NCBI GenBank assembly: GCA_001795795.1
Contig: MGKV01000007.1
Location: 14,553-76,806 of the forward strand
Direction: 5' to 3'
Length of the DNA: 62,254 bases
Source of the DNA: Candidatus Yanofskybacteria bacterium RIFCSPLOWO2_02_FULL_45_18
GTDB taxonomy: Bacteria; Patescibacteriota; Minisyncoccia; 2-02-FULL-40-12; GWA2-44-9
Part shown: positions 3,692 through 62,254 of the stretch, piece after piece
How the letters are laid out: every line of letters starts with the position of its first letter
Position numbering within the stretch: position 1 is the first letter of the stretch
The notes under the pieces: generated by a model
Told to the model about the DNA's origin: nothing
What the model saw: the letters and a program-made list of their open reading frames with translations, nothing else
The model's database searches: none
Position numbers and translations under genes: made by a program

Positions 3692-4768
3692 ATGGCAAGA
3701 ATTGCAATTAACGGCTTCGGCCGCATTGGACGCGCGTTTTTTAAATTGGCATTGGAAAAGCCGGAGTTGGATATTGTTGCCATTAACGACCTTGGAGATA
3801 TTGAATTTCTGGCCTACTTGCTTAGGTTTGATTCGGTTTACGGTAAGTTTAAAAAATCCGTTTCAATAAAAGAAGGCAATCCTTCAATAAGTTCAGGACA
3901 AAAACAAAAGTTTTTGGTTGTAGGGGGCAAGGAAACGTTATTTTTGCAGGAAAAAGATCCTCTGAATCTGCCGTGGAAGGATTTGGGTGTTGATATTGTG
4001 GTTGAATCCACTGGTGTCTTTGAAAGCTATGAAAAGGCGAGAGTCCACATAGCGGCGGGCGCCAAAAGGGTAGTCCTGACTGCTCCGGCGAAAGACGAAG
4101 ATGGTTCGGTAAACTCACCACAAGTCGGCCCAGATGGCCGCACAGTATTAGTTGGTGTCAATGATGACCAGCTTAAAACCTGTACCATATCCTCCAACGG
4201 TTCTTGTACTACCAATTCTGTTTCCCCCGTTATGCAAATTTTGACGGAGAAGCTGGGCGTGAAGAAGGCATATCTTAACACTACGCATGGCTATACGGCA
4301 ACGCAGGTTTTGATGGACGGCTTGCCGGGTAAATCAAAGGACTTTAGGCGCGGGCGGGCGGCGGCGGCTAATATTATTCCTTCTACAACCGGCGCGACGA
4401 CGGCGGTGGCAAGGGCGATAGAATCGCTCCGCGGTAAGTTTGACGGCATATCTTTGCGGGTGCCGGTGCTGGACGGCTCAATCTCGGCCATTACTTTTAT
4501 TTCGGAAAAACCGACCACGGTTGAGGAGATAAACAATATTTTCAAAGAAGCGGAAAAAGATCCGCGCTGGCAGGGCATTCTGCGCACCACCGAAGACCCT
4601 GTCGTCTCAACTGACATTGTTGGCGATCCGTGCGCGGCCATTGCAGACCTCTCCCTTACGCGGGTGGTGGACGGCGACTTGTGTTGCGTTTACAGTTGGT
4701 ATGACAATGAGTTTGGGTATACGAATACATTGGTGCGGCATGTTATTAAAGTGGCCGCCACTTTGTAA
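3692..4768 (+). CDS. gap: Glyceraldehyde-3-phosphate dehydrogenase
   Basis: INGFGRIGR Rossmann motif, SNGSCTTN catalytic Cys motif and WYDNEFGY at the C-terminus. Confidence 0.95.
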   Translation: MARIAINGFGRIGRAFFKLALEKPELDIVAINDLGDIEFLAYLLRFDSVYGKFKKSVSIKEGNPSISSGQKQKFLVVGGKETLFLQEKDPLNLPWKDLGVDIVVESTGVFESYEKARVHIAAGAKRVVLTAPAKDEDGSVNSPQVGPDGRTVLVGVNDDQLKTCTISSNGSCTTNSVSPVMQILTEKLGVKKAYLNTTHGYTATQVLMDGLPGKSKDFRRGRAAAANIIPSTTGATTAVARAIESLRGKFDGISLRVPVLDGSISAITFISEKPTTVEEINNIFKEAEKDPRWQGILRTTEDPVVSTDIVGDPCAAIADLSLTRVVDGDLCCVYSWYDNEFGYTNTLVRHVIKVAATL

Positions 4769-7211: not shown

Positions 7212-8219
7212 ATGAAAATTGAAAATCGTGAATTGTTAAATTTAAAGGCCAAATTAGTTGACAATCTCTTCGACAAGGAATATTTGCAATATGTCCCGAC
7301 CCGTGATGGCTATGGCAAGGGCTTGGTTGAAGCGACCGAAAGGGATGAACGGGTAGTGGCGCTTTGCGCCGATCTGACCGAATCAACGCGGACACATTGG
7401 TTCGCGGAAAAGTTTCCCGAAAGATTTGTTCAAATGGGCGTGTCGGAGCAGGCCTTGGCGGTAATCGGTTCGGGCATGGCCAATTACGGCAAGATTCCTT
7501 TCATCGCGTCATATGCGGTTTTTAGTCCCGGACGCAACAATGAGCAGATCCGCACCAACATTTGCATAAACAATGTGCCGGTCAAAATTGTCGGCGCGCA
7601 CGGGGGAGTATCGGTGGGCCCCGATGGAGCAACGCACCAAGCATTGGAAGATATCGCATTGATGCGCGTATTGCCGCGGATGGTAGTGGTGGTGCCATGC
7701 GATGCTTTTGAAGCGCAAAAGGCGACGGTGGCGGTGGCCTTTAACGGCCAGCCGAGTTATTTGCGCATCGGGCGTGAGAAATCACCCATTTTTACTACAG
7801 CCGAAACGCCATTTGAAATCGGTAGGGCGGAAATTTTTCGCGACGGTAAGGATGCCGTCATTATCGCATGCGGGATACTTTTATATAATGCTCTTTCGGC
7901 CGCCGAGGAATTATCAAAAGAAGGCATAGGGTGCATGGTTATAAATTCTCATACCGTAAAACCGTTGGACGAAAAAACCATCATTGAAGCGGCAAAAAAG
8001 TGCGGCGCTGTCGTATCGGTTGAGGAACATCAAATCGCCGGTGGACTCGGTTCCGCCGTGGCCGAGTGTCTTGCTAAAAACTACCCTGTCCCGCAGGAAT
8101 TTATCGGCATGCGGGACCGCTTTGGCGAATCAGGGAAGCCGGAGGAGCTTTTTGAGCATTTTGGTATGGGGGTCGGGGCGGTTAAAGAGGCGATTCGAAA
8201 AGTTATAAAGAGAAAGTAA
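7212..8219 (+). CDS. Transketolase, C-terminal (pyrimidine-binding) subunit
   Basis: 335-aa ORF. FVQMGVSEQ, GPDGATHQALEDIA and a C-terminal domain typical of split transketolase. Confidence 0.9.
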   Translation: MKIENRELLNLKAKLVDNLFDKEYLQYVPTRDGYGKGLVEATERDERVVALCADLTESTRTHWFAEKFPERFVQMGVSEQALAVIGSGMANYGKIPFIASYAVFSPGRNNEQIRTNICINNVPVKIVGAHGGVSVGPDGATHQALEDIALMRVLPRMVVVVPCDAFEAQKATVAVAFNGQPSYLRIGREKSPIFTTAETPFEIGRAEIFRDGKDAVIIACGILLYNALSAAEELSKEGIGCMVINSHTVKPLDEKTIIEAAKKCGAVVSVEEHQIAGGLGSAVAECLAKNYPVPQEFIGMRDRFGESGKPEELFEHFGMGVGAVKEAIRKVIKRK

Positions 8220-48684: not shown

Positions 48685-48770
48685 AAGAATAATAAGAATA
48701 AGCAGAATTATTAGAATTATAAGGTGCGGCCTGATAATTCCAATAATTCTAAATTCTGATAATTCTAAGT
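48685..48770 (+). repeat. AGAATAATAAGAAT spacer element, copy a
   Basis: AAGAATAATAAGAATAAGCAGAATTATTAGAATTATAAGG... with an internal inverted repeat. Ends 1 nt before the rpsS ATG. Confidence 0.75.
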
Positions 48771-50481: not shown

Positions 50482-50520
50482 TCTTGCCGCATTTGACATG
50501 TGGCATTTGACCAAGTGTGT

Positions 50521-50548
50521 CAATTGTCAATTGTCAATTGTCAATTGT
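50521..50548 (+). repeat. (CAATTGT)x4 heptamer array, upstream of rplP
   Basis: Four exact tandem units, preceded by CATTTGACATGTGGCATTTGACC at 50490..50512. Confidence 0.95.
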
Positions 50549-51457: not shown

Positions 51458-51495
51458 TGTATAACATTTGACATGTGACATTTGACCGAATGAGT

Positions 51496-51529
51496 CAATT
51501 GTCAATTGTCAATTGTCAATTGTCAATTG
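51496..51529 (+). repeat. (CAATTGT)x4 plus CAATTG array, upstream of and into the rplN start
   Basis: Preceded by ACATTTGACATGTGACATTTGACC at 51464..51487. The final TTG (51527..51529) is the inferred start codon. Confidence 0.95.
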
Positions 51530-51892: not shown

Positions 51893-51895
51893 TGA

Positions 51896-51980
51896 AAGAA
51901 TAATAAGAATTAACAGAATTATAAGAGTTAGCAGAAGTTGGCCAGATTACTCGCATTATTCTTATACTTCTGCTTATTCC
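51896..51980 (+). repeat. AGAATAATAAGAAT spacer element, copy b
   Basis: AAGAATAATAAGAATTAACAGAATTATAAGAGTTAGCAG... Ends at the rplX ATG. Confidence 0.75.
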
Positions 51981-53367: not shown

Positions 53368-53404
53368 CATACAACCTTTGACACGTGACCCTTGACAGCA
53401 ATGT

Positions 53405-53438
53405 CAAATGTCAATTGTCAATTGTCAATTGTCAATTG
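53405..53438 (+). repeat. CAAATGT plus (CAATTGT)x3 plus CAATTG array, upstream of and into the rpsH start
   Basis: Preceded by CCTTTGACACGTGACCCTTGACAGCAATGTCAA. The final TTG (53436..53438) is the inferred start codon. Confidence 0.95.
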
Positions 53439-53834: not shown

Positions 53835-53842
53835 GCAAAGAT

Positions 53843-53914
53843 AGAATAATAAGAATTAGTAGAATTATAAGAATTATCGGGACTTTAATCTAATAATTCC
53901 AATAGTTCATAGTT
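53843..53914 (+). repeat. AGAATAATAAGAAT spacer element, copy c
   Basis: AGAATAATAAGAATTAGTAGAATTATAAGAATTATCGG...TAATTCCAATAGTTC. Ends at the rplF ATG. Confidence 0.75.
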
Positions 53915-56179: not shown

Positions 56180-57438
56180 TGTCCAAAATCCTACAAATAT
56201 TCCAGCGTCCTGACCTTCGCAAAAAGGTTCTTTATGTTCTGGCCATATTGGTGATTTTTCGTATTGTTGACAACATACCCATTCCTTCGGTAGATCCATT
56301 AAAGTTGAAGGAATTTTTTGCTCAAAATCAATTTTTCGGCTTAATCAGTGCTTTTACCGGCGGTTCCCTGTCAACTCTTTCTATCGGTATGCTTGGTTTG
56401 GGCCCATACATTACGGGTTCCATTATTATGCAGCTTTTGACGATGATTTTTCCTTCGCTGGAGCAGATGTATAAGTATGAGGGTGAAGCGGGGCGGGCAA
56501 AATTCAACCAATATTCCAGAGTACTGACCGTGCCGTTGGCGGCGCTTCAGGGTTATGGGTTTTTGACGCTGTTGGCCCGTCAAGGAATCATAGGTTCTCT
56601 TGGGACTCTTGAATGGGCGACTACAATTTTAGCGGTAATTGCGGGGAGTGTTTTCTTAATGTGGCTGGGGGAACTGATTACCGAGAAAAACGTCGGCAAC
56701 GGCGTTTCCATATTGATTTTGGCGGGTATTGTGGCGCGGTTTCCCACTGATATTAAACAAGCTCTATTTACCTACAGTTCCAGCCAATTATTTACCTATG
56801 TCGGTTTTGTGGCGATTGCCTTGGCGGTGATTGTCGGCGTTATTTATATTTCAGAAGCCCAAAGGAATATTCCGATTAACTATGCCAAGAGAATTAGAGG
56901 GAACAGAGTATTTGGCGGAGTTTCCACCTATCTTCCGATGCGCGTTAACAACGCGGGGGTTATACCCATTATTTTTGCGTTGTCTATTCTTCTTTTCCCG
57001 GGCATGATCGCCAACTTTCTTTCAGGGGCAAGTGTCCCCGTTGTTTCCCAAATTGCAACCTCGGTAGCGGCTTTTCTTCAATCCCAAGTTTGGTACTCCA
57101 TTTTTTACTTTATCTTGGTTTTTCTTTTCACCTACTTTTATACCGCTGTTACCTTTGACCCCAAATCAATATCTGAGAATATCCAAAAACAGGGTGGCTA
57201 TATTCCCGGTATCCGGCCTGGCCCGATGACAGCCCAATTTCTCAATCATTTGCTGAATCGTGTTACGCTGGTTGGCGCTTTGTTTTTGGGTCTGATCGCG
57301 GTTATGCCAAACATTGTCCGCGGCTTTACGGGCATCACATCCTTTACGGTTGGGGGCACCTCTATTTTAATCGTTGTTTCAGTGGCGTTGGAAATTATGA
57401 AACAATTGGACGCTCAGCTTAGTATGTATCAATACTAA
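56179..57438 (+). CDS. secY: Preprotein translocase subunit SecY
   Basis: 419 aa, 10 TM helices, LG..PYI..SII.QL and GGYIPGIRPG motifs. Confidence 0.97.
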   Translation: MSKILQIFQRPDLRKKVLYVLAILVIFRIVDNIPIPSVDPLKLKEFFAQNQFFGLISAFTGGSLSTLSIGMLGLGPYITGSIIMQLLTMIFPSLEQMYKYEGEAGRAKFNQYSRVLTVPLAALQGYGFLTLLARQGIIGSLGTLEWATTILAVIAGSVFLMWLGELITEKNVGNGVSILILAGIVARFPTDIKQALFTYSSSQLFTYVGFVAIALAVIVGVIYISEAQRNIPINYAKRIRGNRVFGGVSTYLPMRVNNAGVIPIIFALSILLFPGMIANFLSGASVPVVSQIATSVAAFLQSQVWYSIFYFILVFLFTYFYTAVTFDPKSISENIQKQGGYIPGIRPGPMTAQFLNHLLNRVTLVGALFLGLIAVMPNIVRGFTGITSFTVGGTSILIVVSVALEIMKQLDAQLSMYQY

Positions 57439-57474
57439 CGCATAATAAAACCGCCTAGCCCGAAGAAGATTAGG
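57382..57474 (+). repeat. 93-bp direct repeat, copy 1 (last 19 secY codons, stop, and 5' half of the terminator)
   Basis: Matches 58697..58789 at 92 of 93 positions (T at 57427 versus C at 58742). Confidence 0.97.
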
Positions 57475-57497
57475 GCTGTGGGCGGTTTTATTATGCG
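57439..57497. terminator. Long bidirectional terminator hairpin after secY
   Basis: CGCATAATAAAACCGCC...GGCGGTTTTATTATGCG with an inner TAGCCC..GGGCT stem. Confidence 0.85.
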
Positions 57498-57519
57498 CGC
57501 ATTCTTAGGGATTCTAAAT

Positions 57520-57627
57520 TTTGGATTGCTTCTGCGTTACCACTGCACTTCTCGCTCGCCGTACTTTTAGTACACCTCCTCACAATGCTCAATTACGTTT
57601 CGACCTTGGTGAAGCTGGGGAGTTTTA
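57520..57627. repeat. ~110-nt cassette leader motif, copy B
   Basis: Colinear anchors with 24688..24796. Followed by TATAAT at 57639..57644. Confidence 0.55.
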
Positions 57628-57850
57628 GCGTTCCGGTGTATAATAGATGCCCTAAAATCTCAGCCAATTATGGGGTTGCATATTGAGCTATTCTATGCTG
57701 TAATGATAGATATAGAGCCTTTAAAATGCTGTGGCAAAACCAATCTGGTGGAGCCTAAATTCCATAAGGAAGCAGCAAATGTTCCGTTCAAATCCTTCCT
57801 CGGATAAGAGGAAAATGAAAATGCGCAAGGAAGCGCAAGGAGATAAGGCC

Positions 57851-58546
57851 ATGAGTACTGAGTTTGCATCTGCCGGCTTCACTGCCGGTCAGCTCAACGC
57901 CATCGTTAAGAAGCTTGGTGGCGAAGAGAGCGGGAGACAGTTTCTCCGTGGTGGCCTGACGGTCAGTTACCAGAAGCTGGCGCAGTTTGTCGGCTTAGAC
58001 GGAAAGGTCACTTTGGAGAATTTCATGAAATGTGTGACCAGCTGGCGCGAGCAAGATGGCGTCATATGTTTCAGCGTCACTTCCGATGGGACGACTGGTC
58101 CCCAGTGGGTTGAGCGTCTCAAGAAGAAAGGTTTTCAGCTCTCGAAGTGGGCCAAGGACGTTTTAAACTCAAAAGATTTCCAGCCCACAAACGGAGTTAC
58201 GACCGAAATTGCGGTTCTGAAGGGGATGCTGTTTGAGGATGACGATCGTATCACCAAGAAAATCCGCGCTGAAGCCAACCGCCGCAAGTTTACCAAGCCT
58301 AATGCTGAAGTTGCTTGCCTGATACGCGAAATGTTCACGGATGAGGAGATTGAAGCCATGGGTTTGGTGTGGATTACTACCATGCACGAACCCATCAAGG
58401 ATTCTGATGACGATCCGCACCTCCTCATTGTGTACCGCGACGTCAGTGGTCGCTGGTTGTACGCGTATTACGACGAGCCTGACTACTTGTGGAATCGTGA
58501 CTTTGGGTTCGCATTCGTTGTCCCGCAAGTTAGTCCTCAAGACTAA
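57851..58546 (+). CDS. Hypothetical protein (231 aa) carried by the secY-adk insertion
   Basis: AAGGAG 7 nt upstream of the ATG at 57851 (inside track ORF 57731..58546). C/G-ending codon preference. Aromatic C-terminal module ...GRWLYAYYDEPDYLWNRDFGFAFV. Confidence 0.75.
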   Translation: MSTEFASAGFTAGQLNAIVKKLGGEESGRQFLRGGLTVSYQKLAQFVGLDGKVTLENFMKCVTSWREQDGVICFSVTSDGTTGPQWVERLKKKGFQLSKWAKDVLNSKDFQPTNGVTTEIAVLKGMLFEDDDRITKKIRAEANRRKFTKPNAEVACLIREMFTDEEIEAMGLVWITTMHEPIKDSDDDPHLLIVYRDVSGRWLYAYYDEPDYLWNRDFGFAFVVPQVSPQD

Positions 58547-58583
58547 GATTCTTGGAACTTTTGTTCCTTTGATCTTAGTCCTT

Positions 58584-58626
58584 AGCCCCATTCCGGGCCG
58601 CCAGCTGGCGGAATCGGAATGGGGCT
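58584..58626 (+). terminator. Strong stem-loop after the cassette ORF
   Basis: AGCCCCATTCCG...CGGAATGGGGCT (12 bp) with an inner CCGCC-AGCT-GGCGG. Confidence 0.7.
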
Positions 58627-58696
58627 AAAATTTTGCATTAAAATTGGTAGATGTGGATTTTGTGTATACATGCCACCGGCTACGGCTTGGGATAGC

Positions 58697-58789
58697 GTGG
58701 CGTTGGAAATTATGAAACAATTGGACGCTCAGCTTAGTATGCATCAATACTAACGCATAATAAAACCGCCTAGCCCGAAGAAGATTAGG
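58697..58789 (+). repeat. 93-bp direct repeat, copy 2 (pseudo secY 3' end, lacks the 3' half of the terminator)
   Basis: See copy 1. Confidence 0.97.
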
Positions 58790-59017
58790 TTGGATGCCCT
58801 GCTGGAAAATCAGGAGCTCATCCCCGAGTCCTGGAAGAAAGATGAGCAAGGCAACACTCGCTATATATTTTTCTGGGGCACCATCTATCGCCGCGGCTCC
58901 GGTGGCCGCCTATATGTCCGCTCTCTGTGCTTCCACGATGGCGGGTGGTTCTGGTACTGCATCTGCCTTGACTACGACTTCTGTGGCCTCTACCCGGCAG
59001 CTGTCTCCGCAAGTTGA
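58790..59017 (+). pseudogene. 5'-truncated gene fragment abutting repeat copy 2
   Basis: The open frame begins exactly at the repeat boundary, with no SD or ATG. Encodes ...LIPESWKKDEQGNTRYIFFWGTIYRRGSGGRLYVRSLCFHDGGWFWYCICLDYDFCGLYPAAVSAS. Confidence 0.55.
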
Positions 59018-59073
59018 TCTGGTTTTTAGCACCTGGACTCATTGATTTTTGTCCTTGAATTCATTGGTGCTTG

Positions 59074-59097
59074 GCCCGCGCTTTTCGCGGGCTTTTT
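59074..59097 (+). terminator. Rho-independent terminator
   Basis: GCCCGCG-CTTT-TCGCGGGC followed by T5. Confidence 0.8.
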
Positions 59098-59218
59098 GCT
59101 ACTCAATTTAGTCAAAAAGAAGTTCTCAACCCCGCTCTTTTTGCAAAAGGGCGGGGTCAACAGGGACTTTCCAGTACTAACCAGTGACGGGACTTTTTAT
59201 TTTTAGTATTATAAATGC

Positions 59219-61644: not shown

Positions 61645-61737
61645 TGTGGCTCACCTTTGTTGAGCCACCGCGGACTTTGCGGACTAAACGCGGAACTACG
61701 CGGACAAACTAAAAAATGTCTGCGTAAGTCGGCGTAA
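61645..61737 (+). repeat. rRNA insertion element, copy 1
   Basis: Identical over 93 nt to 62162..62254. Hairpin GTGGCTCA-N7-TGAGCCAC, then GCGGAC-type units. Confidence 0.97.
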
Positions 61738-62161: not shown

Positions 62162-62254
62162 TGTGGCTCACCTTTGTTGAGCCACCGCGGACTTTGCGGA
62201 CTAAACGCGGAACTACGCGGACAAACTAAAAAATGTCTGCGTAAGTCGGCGTAA
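62162..62254 (+). repeat. rRNA insertion element, copy 2 (truncated by the window end), in the helix 25 loop region
   Basis: Identical to 61645..61737. Follows ...CCTACAAAGAGCCGGAGC. Confidence 0.95.

Follow-up and report, generated by a model that had tools for sequence, protein, structure and literature searches.

The window analysed here is a 62,254-nucleotide stretch of Candidatus Yanofskybacteria DNA (from contig MGKV01000007.1), part of a Candidate Phyla Radiation (CPR) contig recovered from the Rifle aquifer metagenomes. The interval between its secY and adk genes almost certainly holds orphaned target genes of a diversity-generating retroelement (DGR), one intact (T1) and one truncated (T2'). 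Between the two genes stands a second copy of a 93-nt segment from the secY 3' end, and this direct repeat is probably a recombination scar rather than an attachment (att) site. The reading that unites these claims, in which the remains of orphaned DGR targets lie around a secY stub made by recombination, is one that we hold with middling confidence. The original prediction, made from the letters alone, had described foreign DNA wedged between secY and adk and had left its family unnamed; that family can now be given as the CPR-type DGRs, which correspond to 'clade 2' of Roux et al. 2021 (PMC8144416) and to the 'CPR set' of Wu et al. 2018 (PMC5758913).

The identity of T1 emerges from its relatives. 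A word-indexed search of a protein collection returned 1,937 T1 relatives (E <= 0.001), whose typical members are 211 amino acids long, share 60-67% BLASTP identity and are spread across many Patescibacteria (CPR) lineages. In complete genomes and long contigs that reveal the surroundings of such relatives, the last ~128 nt of the gene are repeated ~340 nt past the stop codon, ahead of an opposite-strand bAvd gene and an RVT_1 reverse transcriptase (RT). Comparison of the two copies, which correspond to the variable region (VR) and template repeat (TR) of a DGR, shows that 16 of 17 mismatches in locus L003 and all 18 in locus L004 fall on adenines of the downstream copy. Because such a concentration of mismatches on TR adenines is the hallmark that defines a DGR, the T1 family can be assigned to the DGR variable proteins.

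The same logic applies to the reading frame that opens directly after the second repeat copy, which the original prediction took for a 5'-truncated gene. This proved correct: homology begins exactly at 58790, at codon 59 of a family whose full-length relative has 132 residues. Members of this 132-aa family occupy the same type of cassette in 49 metagenomic loci, the RTs of which are 62-69% identical to those of the T1 family, and their VR/TR mismatches again lie at TR adenines (17/17, 19/19, 17/18, 12/13 and 12/14). Both families thus share one arrangement in their home cassettes elsewhere (target, TR, avd on the minus strand, RT), and homologs that are demonstrable targets are found for T1 in L003, L004, L140 and L142, and for the fragment in L089, L091, L103, L105, L116, L130 and others. 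The two families also occur together in single DGR loci (L127 and L129). An earlier suggestion that the interval is a tandem array of promoter-plus-ORF (open reading frame) cassettes was therefore close without being exact, in that two cassettes of one kind, each with a DGR variable-protein gene, are indeed present. A recent tandem duplication of the secY end together with T1 was considered and rejected, as the fragment and the final portion of T1 share no homology.

The machinery that would diversify these genes is missing from the window. Searches of all 62 kb by tblastn with two RTs of homologous loci returned no RT, and the ORF list of the interval holds none; tblastn likewise gave no match to Avd, and blastn found no second copy of VR1 or VR2 that could serve as a TR. 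At the level of consensus sequences, VR1 and VR2 are invariant in all assemblies, comprising three cluster members and at least 25 contigs, and there is no sign of current diversification. T1 could be diversified only by a matching DGR elsewhere in the genome, of which the data show no sign, and the truncations affecting cassette 1 and T2' suggest decay rather than use in trans.

Inspection of the cassette boundaries shows where these truncations fall. DNA homology between cassette 1 and complete cassettes runs from ~57793 to ~58690 and ends before the TR. Compared with L003, L004, L140 and L142, the block preceding the TR (...GTAGGTGAATATGC-stem-loop-stem-TACCGAACCCAGTATCC...) is kept in cassette 1 only as far as the stem-loop. 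In intact cassettes this block occupies ~200 nt between the target terminator and the TR, is common to both target families in several CPR lineages, reads …GTAGGTGAATATGC-hairpin-TACCGAACCCAGTATCC…GAAGATACTTGG… with a -10-like box upstream, and probably forms the structured 5' portion of the RNA that contains the TR. The tail of cassette 2 contains no TR block and stops after its own terminator.

Within cassette 1, T1 itself is whole, and to judge from its sequence it can be expressed as an ordinary gene. Its start at 57851 is preceded by AAGGAG 8 nt upstream and is favoured over the annotated starts by family alignments, in agreement with the Shine-Dalgarno-led, 231-residue ORF proposed earlier. 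The conserved leader in front of T1 contains two small hairpins, the second of which shows compensatory changes among family members (GCGC/GCGC, GCCC/GGGC, GGGC/GCCC). In the predicted fold, a stretch 5' of hairpin 1 pairs with the Shine-Dalgarno sequence, and the leader may for this reason be a cis-regulatory RNA. The stem of the terminator that follows T1 has 14 perfect pairs, not the 12 counted previously. The two further terminators noted after the fragment are present as terminator-like hairpins at 59073-59093 and 59129-59157.

Profile and sequence searches, proposed earlier as a means of classifying the two proteins, gave no match for either T1 or the fragment in Pfam, NCBIfam, PHROGs or the PDB. 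An AF2 model of T1 has a mean pLDDT of 65.6, falling below 50 in the VR region; with this moderate-quality model, Foldseek searches of the PDB and BFVD found nothing at E <0.1, and many of the weak matches are C-type lectins, a fold which, like the Ig fold, would be expected to carry a VR. T1 carries ~20 extra residues (YQKLAQFVGLDGKVTLENFMKCV, residues ~40-62) that are missing from its 211-aa relatives and are modelled with low confidence. One family member (P0002, 385 aa) contains two T1-family domain copies in tandem.

The secY-adk interval is lineage-specific accessory DNA, since close relatives have secY and adk adjacent without T1 or T2' and since both of these DGR genes are outliers in G+C content at third codon positions (GC3). 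In most relatives, including four Yanofskybacteria-type metagenome-assembled genomes, secY and adk lie 40-270 bp apart with no DGR genes between them, which provides the empty-site comparison envisaged earlier and upholds the claim of foreign DNA. In the two closest species this position is taken up by 0.9-1.5 kb of ORFs unrelated to T1 and T2', and 18 loci of other CPR genomes have gaps of 0.6-2 kb that likewise contain unrelated ORFs and no secY repeats; none of these relatives holds T1 or T2' there, and a repeat of the secY end occurs in none of 80 related loci. GC3 reaches 0.615 in T1 (z 2.4) and 0.707 in the fragment (z 4.3) when set against 48 ORFs of the window, a moderate deviation that bears out the host-deviating composition reported before. 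A hand count of 67 G+C in the first 120 nt of the T1 ORF was also right, while that for the last 120 nt of secY is 52 rather than 55.

The two copies of the 93-nt repeat, whose coordinates on recomputation were those originally given, are identical at 92 of 93 positions and differ only by T57427 versus C58742; two such copies were reached in no shuffle of the window, and the longest exact match between them is 47 nt. The copies are unequal in what they preserve (Table 1). SecY ends in SMYEY in eight of eight close relatives, in SMYQY when read through copy 1, and in SMHQY through copy 2, where the C at 58742 changes the conserved tyrosine to histidine. As originally described, the secY terminator is completed after copy 1 only, where its arms (57439-57455 and 57481-57497) pair at 17 of 17 positions; its 3' half is absent after copy 2. 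A terminator of the same type (A-tract, stem, T-tract) lies 3' of secY in L011 and L014. Copy 1 with its hairpin is thus the working end of secY, as the tyrosine and the terminator type of the relatives are kept there, and copy 2 is a dead, decaying secY stub. The right end of this stub falls within the loop of the terminator palindrome, and the stub as a whole sits between two truncated DGR pieces.

Table 1. Coordinates of the features discussed in the text; positions are those of the window unless a locus is named.
Feature	Position	Strand	Evidence or remark
secY, intact, 419 aa	56179..57438	+	Pfam SecY E 1e-102; C-terminal SMYQY with Tyr
Repeat copy 1: 19 terminal secY codons, stop and 5' half of terminator; functional copy	57382..57474	+	T at 57427
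Full terminator hairpin of secY: outer stem (17 bp) and inner stem, A-tract 5', T-tract 3'	57439..57497	+	Inverted repeat; -38.1 kcal/mol
Spacer with TATAAT at 57639; host intergenic DNA or upstream part of cassette 1	57498..57792	+	
Conserved 5' leader of T1 cassette: two small hairpins, then AAGGAG	57793..57850	+	Aligned with L003, L004, L137, L142
T1, intact DGR variable-protein gene, 231 aa	57851..58546	+	Homologs adjoin bAvd and RVT_1 with VR/TR pairs
VR1, variable region of T1 by homology	58400..58528	+	In register with VRs of L003, L004
Conserved 3' tail of cassette 1: small hairpin 58554-58567 and 14-bp terminator stem 58582-58595/58615-58628	58554..58628	+	
Promoter remnant and first ~35 nt of pre-TR conserved block; cassette 1 breaks	58629..58696	+	
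Repeat copy 2: dead stub of secY 3' end, half terminator only	58697..58789	+	C at 58742
T2': 3' 75 codons of second DGR variable-protein gene, without first 58 codons	58790..59017	+	
VR2	~58892-59013	+	Within T2'
Cassette 2 tail: terminator 59073-59098, second hairpin 59129-59157, adk promoter region	59018..59218	+	
adk, 243 aa	59219..59950	+	Pfam ADK
Second direct repeat, exact	61645-61737 and 62162-62254		Inside 23S rRNA gene (61253 to window end)
Intergenic 40-70-nt repeat families among ribosomal-protein genes	50490-50548, 51460-51529, 53370-53438; 48686-48749, 51894-51930, 53840-53876		
Duplicated 5' end of ychF-like GTPase gene in L105, 216 nt, 93.5%	4206-4421 and 7348-7563 (L105)		Brackets complete DGR (target, TR, avd, RT)
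~200-nt pre-TR block	L003 6780-6955; L004 6780-6955; L140, L142, L089, L091, L116, L130, L105, L103		

The arrangement is not a product of assembly. Eight contigs from four assembly pipelines share the structure. It is unchanged in L001, L002, L005 and L143-L146, down to the single-nucleotide polymorphism (SNP) and each of the four junctions, with 0 mismatches over 1,950 nt. The sources are NCBI scaffolds from further samples, one JGI assembly, scaffolds held at ENA and contigs that MEGAHIT built at k=141; since k-mers of that length exceed the 93-nt repeat and the four pipelines agree, the chimeric join named in the original prediction as grounds for discarding the claim did not materialize. 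The gene order is the same in 23 of 23 contigs encoding exactly this SecY, and the occupied form, present in at least 25 contigs, is the dominant one. An exact search with the repeat core gave 0 matches in a metagenome contig collection that holds no Rifle contigs.

Occupied and empty forms, the latter without a 1,315-bp unit, coexist in the population. The empty form is seen in L006, a 1,408-bp JGI contig in which 57474 is joined directly to 58790 and which carries the T allele. Independent support for an empty T form is provided by L154 and one similar contig, from another sample and another pipeline: they start at 58743, the next base after the SNP, and cross the 58789|58790 junction. A left-only graph branch at the shared 47-mer means that both T and C precede the fragment. 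In addition, L156 (whose start corresponds to window position 58683) and three similar ENA contigs begin 14 nt before copy 2; breaks of this type may represent a further variant of the T1 tail.

How might a dead secY end have come to lie between two broken DGR pieces? We give roughly an even chance to a specific route in which ordinary recombination, acting with no integrase, joined the pieces by homology-anchored insertion; the homology-driven alternative allowed for in the original prediction becomes the favoured one. The donor segment would have comprised the 3' part of secY, the terminator and the T1 cassette, ending ~35 nt into the pre-TR block, and the recipient chromosome would have carried secY, half a terminator, the truncated T2 and adk. 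One homologous crossover inside secY, combined with one illegitimate joint onto position 57382 of the resident secY (possibly at a GTGGC microhomology), would suffice; because this joint would lie 93 nt upstream of the end of homology, the resident secY end would be kept as the copy 2 stub. The 57474|58790 junction would stem from an earlier event in which the terminator loop, the tip of a long palindrome, was joined illegitimately to the interior of T2. Under this route and under the single-lineage rival considered below alike, the two 93-nt copies are now substrates for homologous recombination that removes the 1,315-bp unit, which lets occupied and empty forms coexist. We infer the order of events, the donor and the mechanism of the joints.

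Two observations bear on this route. The first five nucleotides of copy 2, GTGGC, are complementary to GCCAC at 58672-58676; a covarying hairpin (GCGGGA/TCCCGC, GCGGA/TCCGC and others) occupies this place in the family, which suggests that the left joint formed at a 5-nt GTGGC microhomology. The main support beyond the anatomy of the locus comes from L105, where the 5' end of a gene for a ychF-like GTPase is duplicated around a complete DGR. The two L105 copies differ at 14 nucleotides, mostly synonymous and amounting to three amino-acid changes, and start codon and upstream DNA are separate for each; they resemble a pair of alleles that recombination, with the host gene as anchor, has brought together. 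An additional target gene lies upstream of the ychF stub.

A screen for comparable stubs covered 57 DGR-target loci, with 56 CPR ribosomal-operon loci as controls. Several candidate host-gene stubs were rejected: L102 and L113 contain perfect inverted repeats in non-coding DNA, L090, L127 and L129 contain paralogous cassette leaders, and L096 and L119 contain intergenic repeats. Direct repeats of 60-160 nt are similarly numerous in the control loci, where all are of the intergenic hairpin type, so that there is no enrichment.

Several points weigh against homology-anchored insertion. Besides the window, L105 is the only gene-stub case in 386 kb of DGR loci, against 0 in 624 kb of control loci, a difference that is not significant. 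The GTGGC joint relies on an inferred hairpin with a loop longer than that of other family members, and the right junction shows no clear microhomology. None of 23 SecY and 23 Adk contigs shows a donor, or an ancestral haplotype in the order secY, terminator, T1, TR-avd-RT, T2 and adk. That the DNA just after copy 1 is native is unsupported by homology: neither this DNA nor that before adk has homology in the same intervals of the eight closest genomes, which are too diverged for the purpose, and the spacer, in which the TATAAT reported earlier is present, shows none to DGR loci or to the DNA 3' of secY in relatives. L006, one 1.4-kb contig out of an early JGI assembly, could be a merge artefact, since that pipeline fused contigs whose ends overlapped by 80 nt or more at 98% identity. 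The route further assumes natural competence of the host, and an intrachromosomal deletion with a templated 93-nt patch would yield the same product in fewer steps.

This last scenario, which we consider possible though unlikely, would place all events in a single lineage. A complete two-target DGR would have stood between the secY terminator and adk and then been broken, and repair would have cost it the TR, avd, the RT and the beginning of T2. From the left end, primed at the GTGGC of secY, 93 nt would have been copied before the polymerase dropped off at the terminator palindrome; this template-switch patch would have been joined to the right end, and the empty form would have arisen later through recombination between the copies. 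One event would in this way explain both the position of copy 2 between two truncated pieces and its end in a hairpin loop, and would make a second haplotype unnecessary, with fewer events than the insertion route. The co-occurrence of both target families in single DGR loci fits such an ancestor, and the one non-synonymous change in copy 2 is what would be expected of a recent dead copy. Against this, two alleles account for L105, with its separate starts and upstream DNA and mainly synonymous divergence, better than a patch does; a persisting empty haplotype agrees at least equally well with the T allele of L006 and with the SNP branch of L154; and templated patches of ~93 nt are, to our knowledge, poorly documented in bacteria.

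Site-specific integration, the att-like interpretation offered at the outset, now seems improbable. It would make the 93 nt, or a core within them, an attachment site at the secY 3' end, with the copies as attL and attR of a 1.3-kb, integrase-less mobilisable cassette that accumulates in tandem with the help of a recombinase encoded elsewhere. Direct repeats that rebuild the 3' end of an essential gene are characteristic of many integrative elements, and both a single-copy empty form and two cassettes in tandem exist here. The ORF list and Pfam reveal no integrase or transposase in the interval, however, as had been noted at the start, and no third copy of the repeat follows the second cassette in the window. 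The cassette ends coincide with the truncation points of a larger conserved DGR cassette and not with defined element termini, the secY end has not been reused in any of the 80 related loci, copy 2 is decaying, and the DNA that follows copy 1 supplies the second half of the host terminator, an odd coincidence if that DNA were foreign. Repeats are absent from the flanks of the other T1-type orphan (L137-L139), and no inverted repeats occur at 57475/58696. A duplication of 93 nt is also far beyond the usual range of target-site duplications made by transposons and insertion sequences.

More improbable still is a duplication made by a retroelement, in which the DGR or another RT would have switched template onto the 3' end of secY mRNA and the chimeric cDNA been integrated beside T2. 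The locus does descend from a retroelement, copy 2 ends in a terminator loop that could be an RNA 3' end, and it lies directly upstream of a VR-bearing gene. Nevertheless, copying of secY mRNA by the DGR RT is rejected because copy 2 has no adenine-specific changes: all adenines of copy 1 are kept, and the sole change is T to C. The junction lies ~100 nt upstream of VR2, in gene sequence outside the TR, and the left junction is ~35 nt inside the putative DGR RNA rather than at its 5' end. The RT-Avd complex of DGRs is, moreover, reportedly selective for its own RNA. Assembly error, through the collapse of strain variants or through a chimeric join, has next to no chance of explaining the locus, despite the metagenomic origin of the data, the presence of several close strains and scaffold gaps in the nearby 23S rRNA region of the NCBI assemblies, given the mismatch-free agreement of the four pipelines and a longest inter-copy match short enough for sequences of read length to tell the copies apart.

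Extending homology-anchored insertion beyond this locus, one might propose that CPR DGR cassettes and their targets spread between related strains by recombination anchored in adjacent housekeeping genes, leaving a stub (of the secY 3' end or the ychF 5' end) that permits reversible loss and regain. We regard this generalization as doubtful. If true, variable-protein genes would be reversible presence/absence polymorphisms in natural populations of unculturable organisms.

Other repeats lie near the locus and elsewhere. The exact repeat inside the 23S rRNA gene appears to be 93 nt long because the window ends there; in the longer contigs L152 and L154 it measures 134 nt (61645-61778/62162-62295), is 100% identical and has copies 517 nt apart, with a third copy (78%) ~1.6 kb further on. 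This length led us to reject the idea that a shared 93-nt length reflects a k-mer artefact. The 23S region shows runs of N in NCBI scaffolds and is followed at some distance by a LAGLIDADG ORF; the 23S gene thus carries insertions. The intergenic repeats of the ribosomal-protein genes combine a short motif with its complement (for example TTTGACATGTGACATTTGAC...GTCAATTGTCAATTGTCAATTG), and analogous species-specific repeats occur in the ribosomal operons of other CPR genomes (L008, L011, L019, L038, L053). In L099, a 39-nt direct repeat (2611-2649/4831-4869) surrounds an orphan target of the 132-aa family and an NYN-like ORF, next to a fragment resembling the zinc ribbon of a serine recombinase; this could be a different, recombinase-linked way of moving target genes. 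Rfam searches of the whole window, and of the interval at a permissive threshold, returned only chance matches on terminator hairpins.

The locus is a known kind of element, and nothing in it changes what is understood of DGRs; its value lies in annotation and in a testable case. Two unannotated protein families, widespread in the CPR and represented by no Pfam, NCBIfam or PHROG model, can be named as DGR variable proteins. The interval offers a clean, multiply assembled example of the decay and rearrangement of a DGR locus beside essential genes, the secY and ychF stubs would be traces, left in nature, of how an uncultured lineage gains genes through homology-anchored recombination, and the occupied/empty polymorphism could be tracked in the existing Rifle time series.

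Comparison with known systems places the locus more closely. Integrative elements at gene 3' ends, bounded by attL and attR, share with it direct repeats that keep the gene intact and a single-copy empty form, whereas the window lacks a recombinase, defined ends, site reuse and a conserved core, and its second copy is damaged. The microcin H47 island of E. coli (PMC3191183, PMC5426353) is likewise a small recombinase-less segment between direct repeats that is lost by recombination, but cargo and organism differ, the repeats of the window are the end of a host gene, and its excision we infer from contigs only. Homology-anchored illegitimate recombination (reference 50 in PMC8116780) would match the secY anchor, the putative illegitimate joint at a short microhomology and the arbitrarily cut fragment; its usual product is a deletion, in contrast to the 93-nt duplication of the anchor found here, where the process is read from sequence and not from experiment. 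As in other remote or orphan DGR targets, a VR-type gene is present without an adjacent RT, a situation found within 5-7 kb for about half of the loci of the 132-aa family and for L137-L139 in the T1 family; a target counts as remote when some other part of its genome holds a TR that matches it. The truncations of the window suggest decay. From complete CPR-type DGRs the locus differs in lacking RT, Avd and TR throughout 62 kb, in cassette 1 being cut before the TR and gene 2 at codon 59, and in its invariant VRs. Targets of this CPR-restricted clade lack recognisable domains (PMC8144416), as do both window proteins, and some of these DGRs are interleaved with ribosomal-protein genes (PMC5758913). 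Both genes are homologous, in protein and in DNA, to the targets of complete cassettes of this type, with which they share the C-terminal VR, the leader and the tail.

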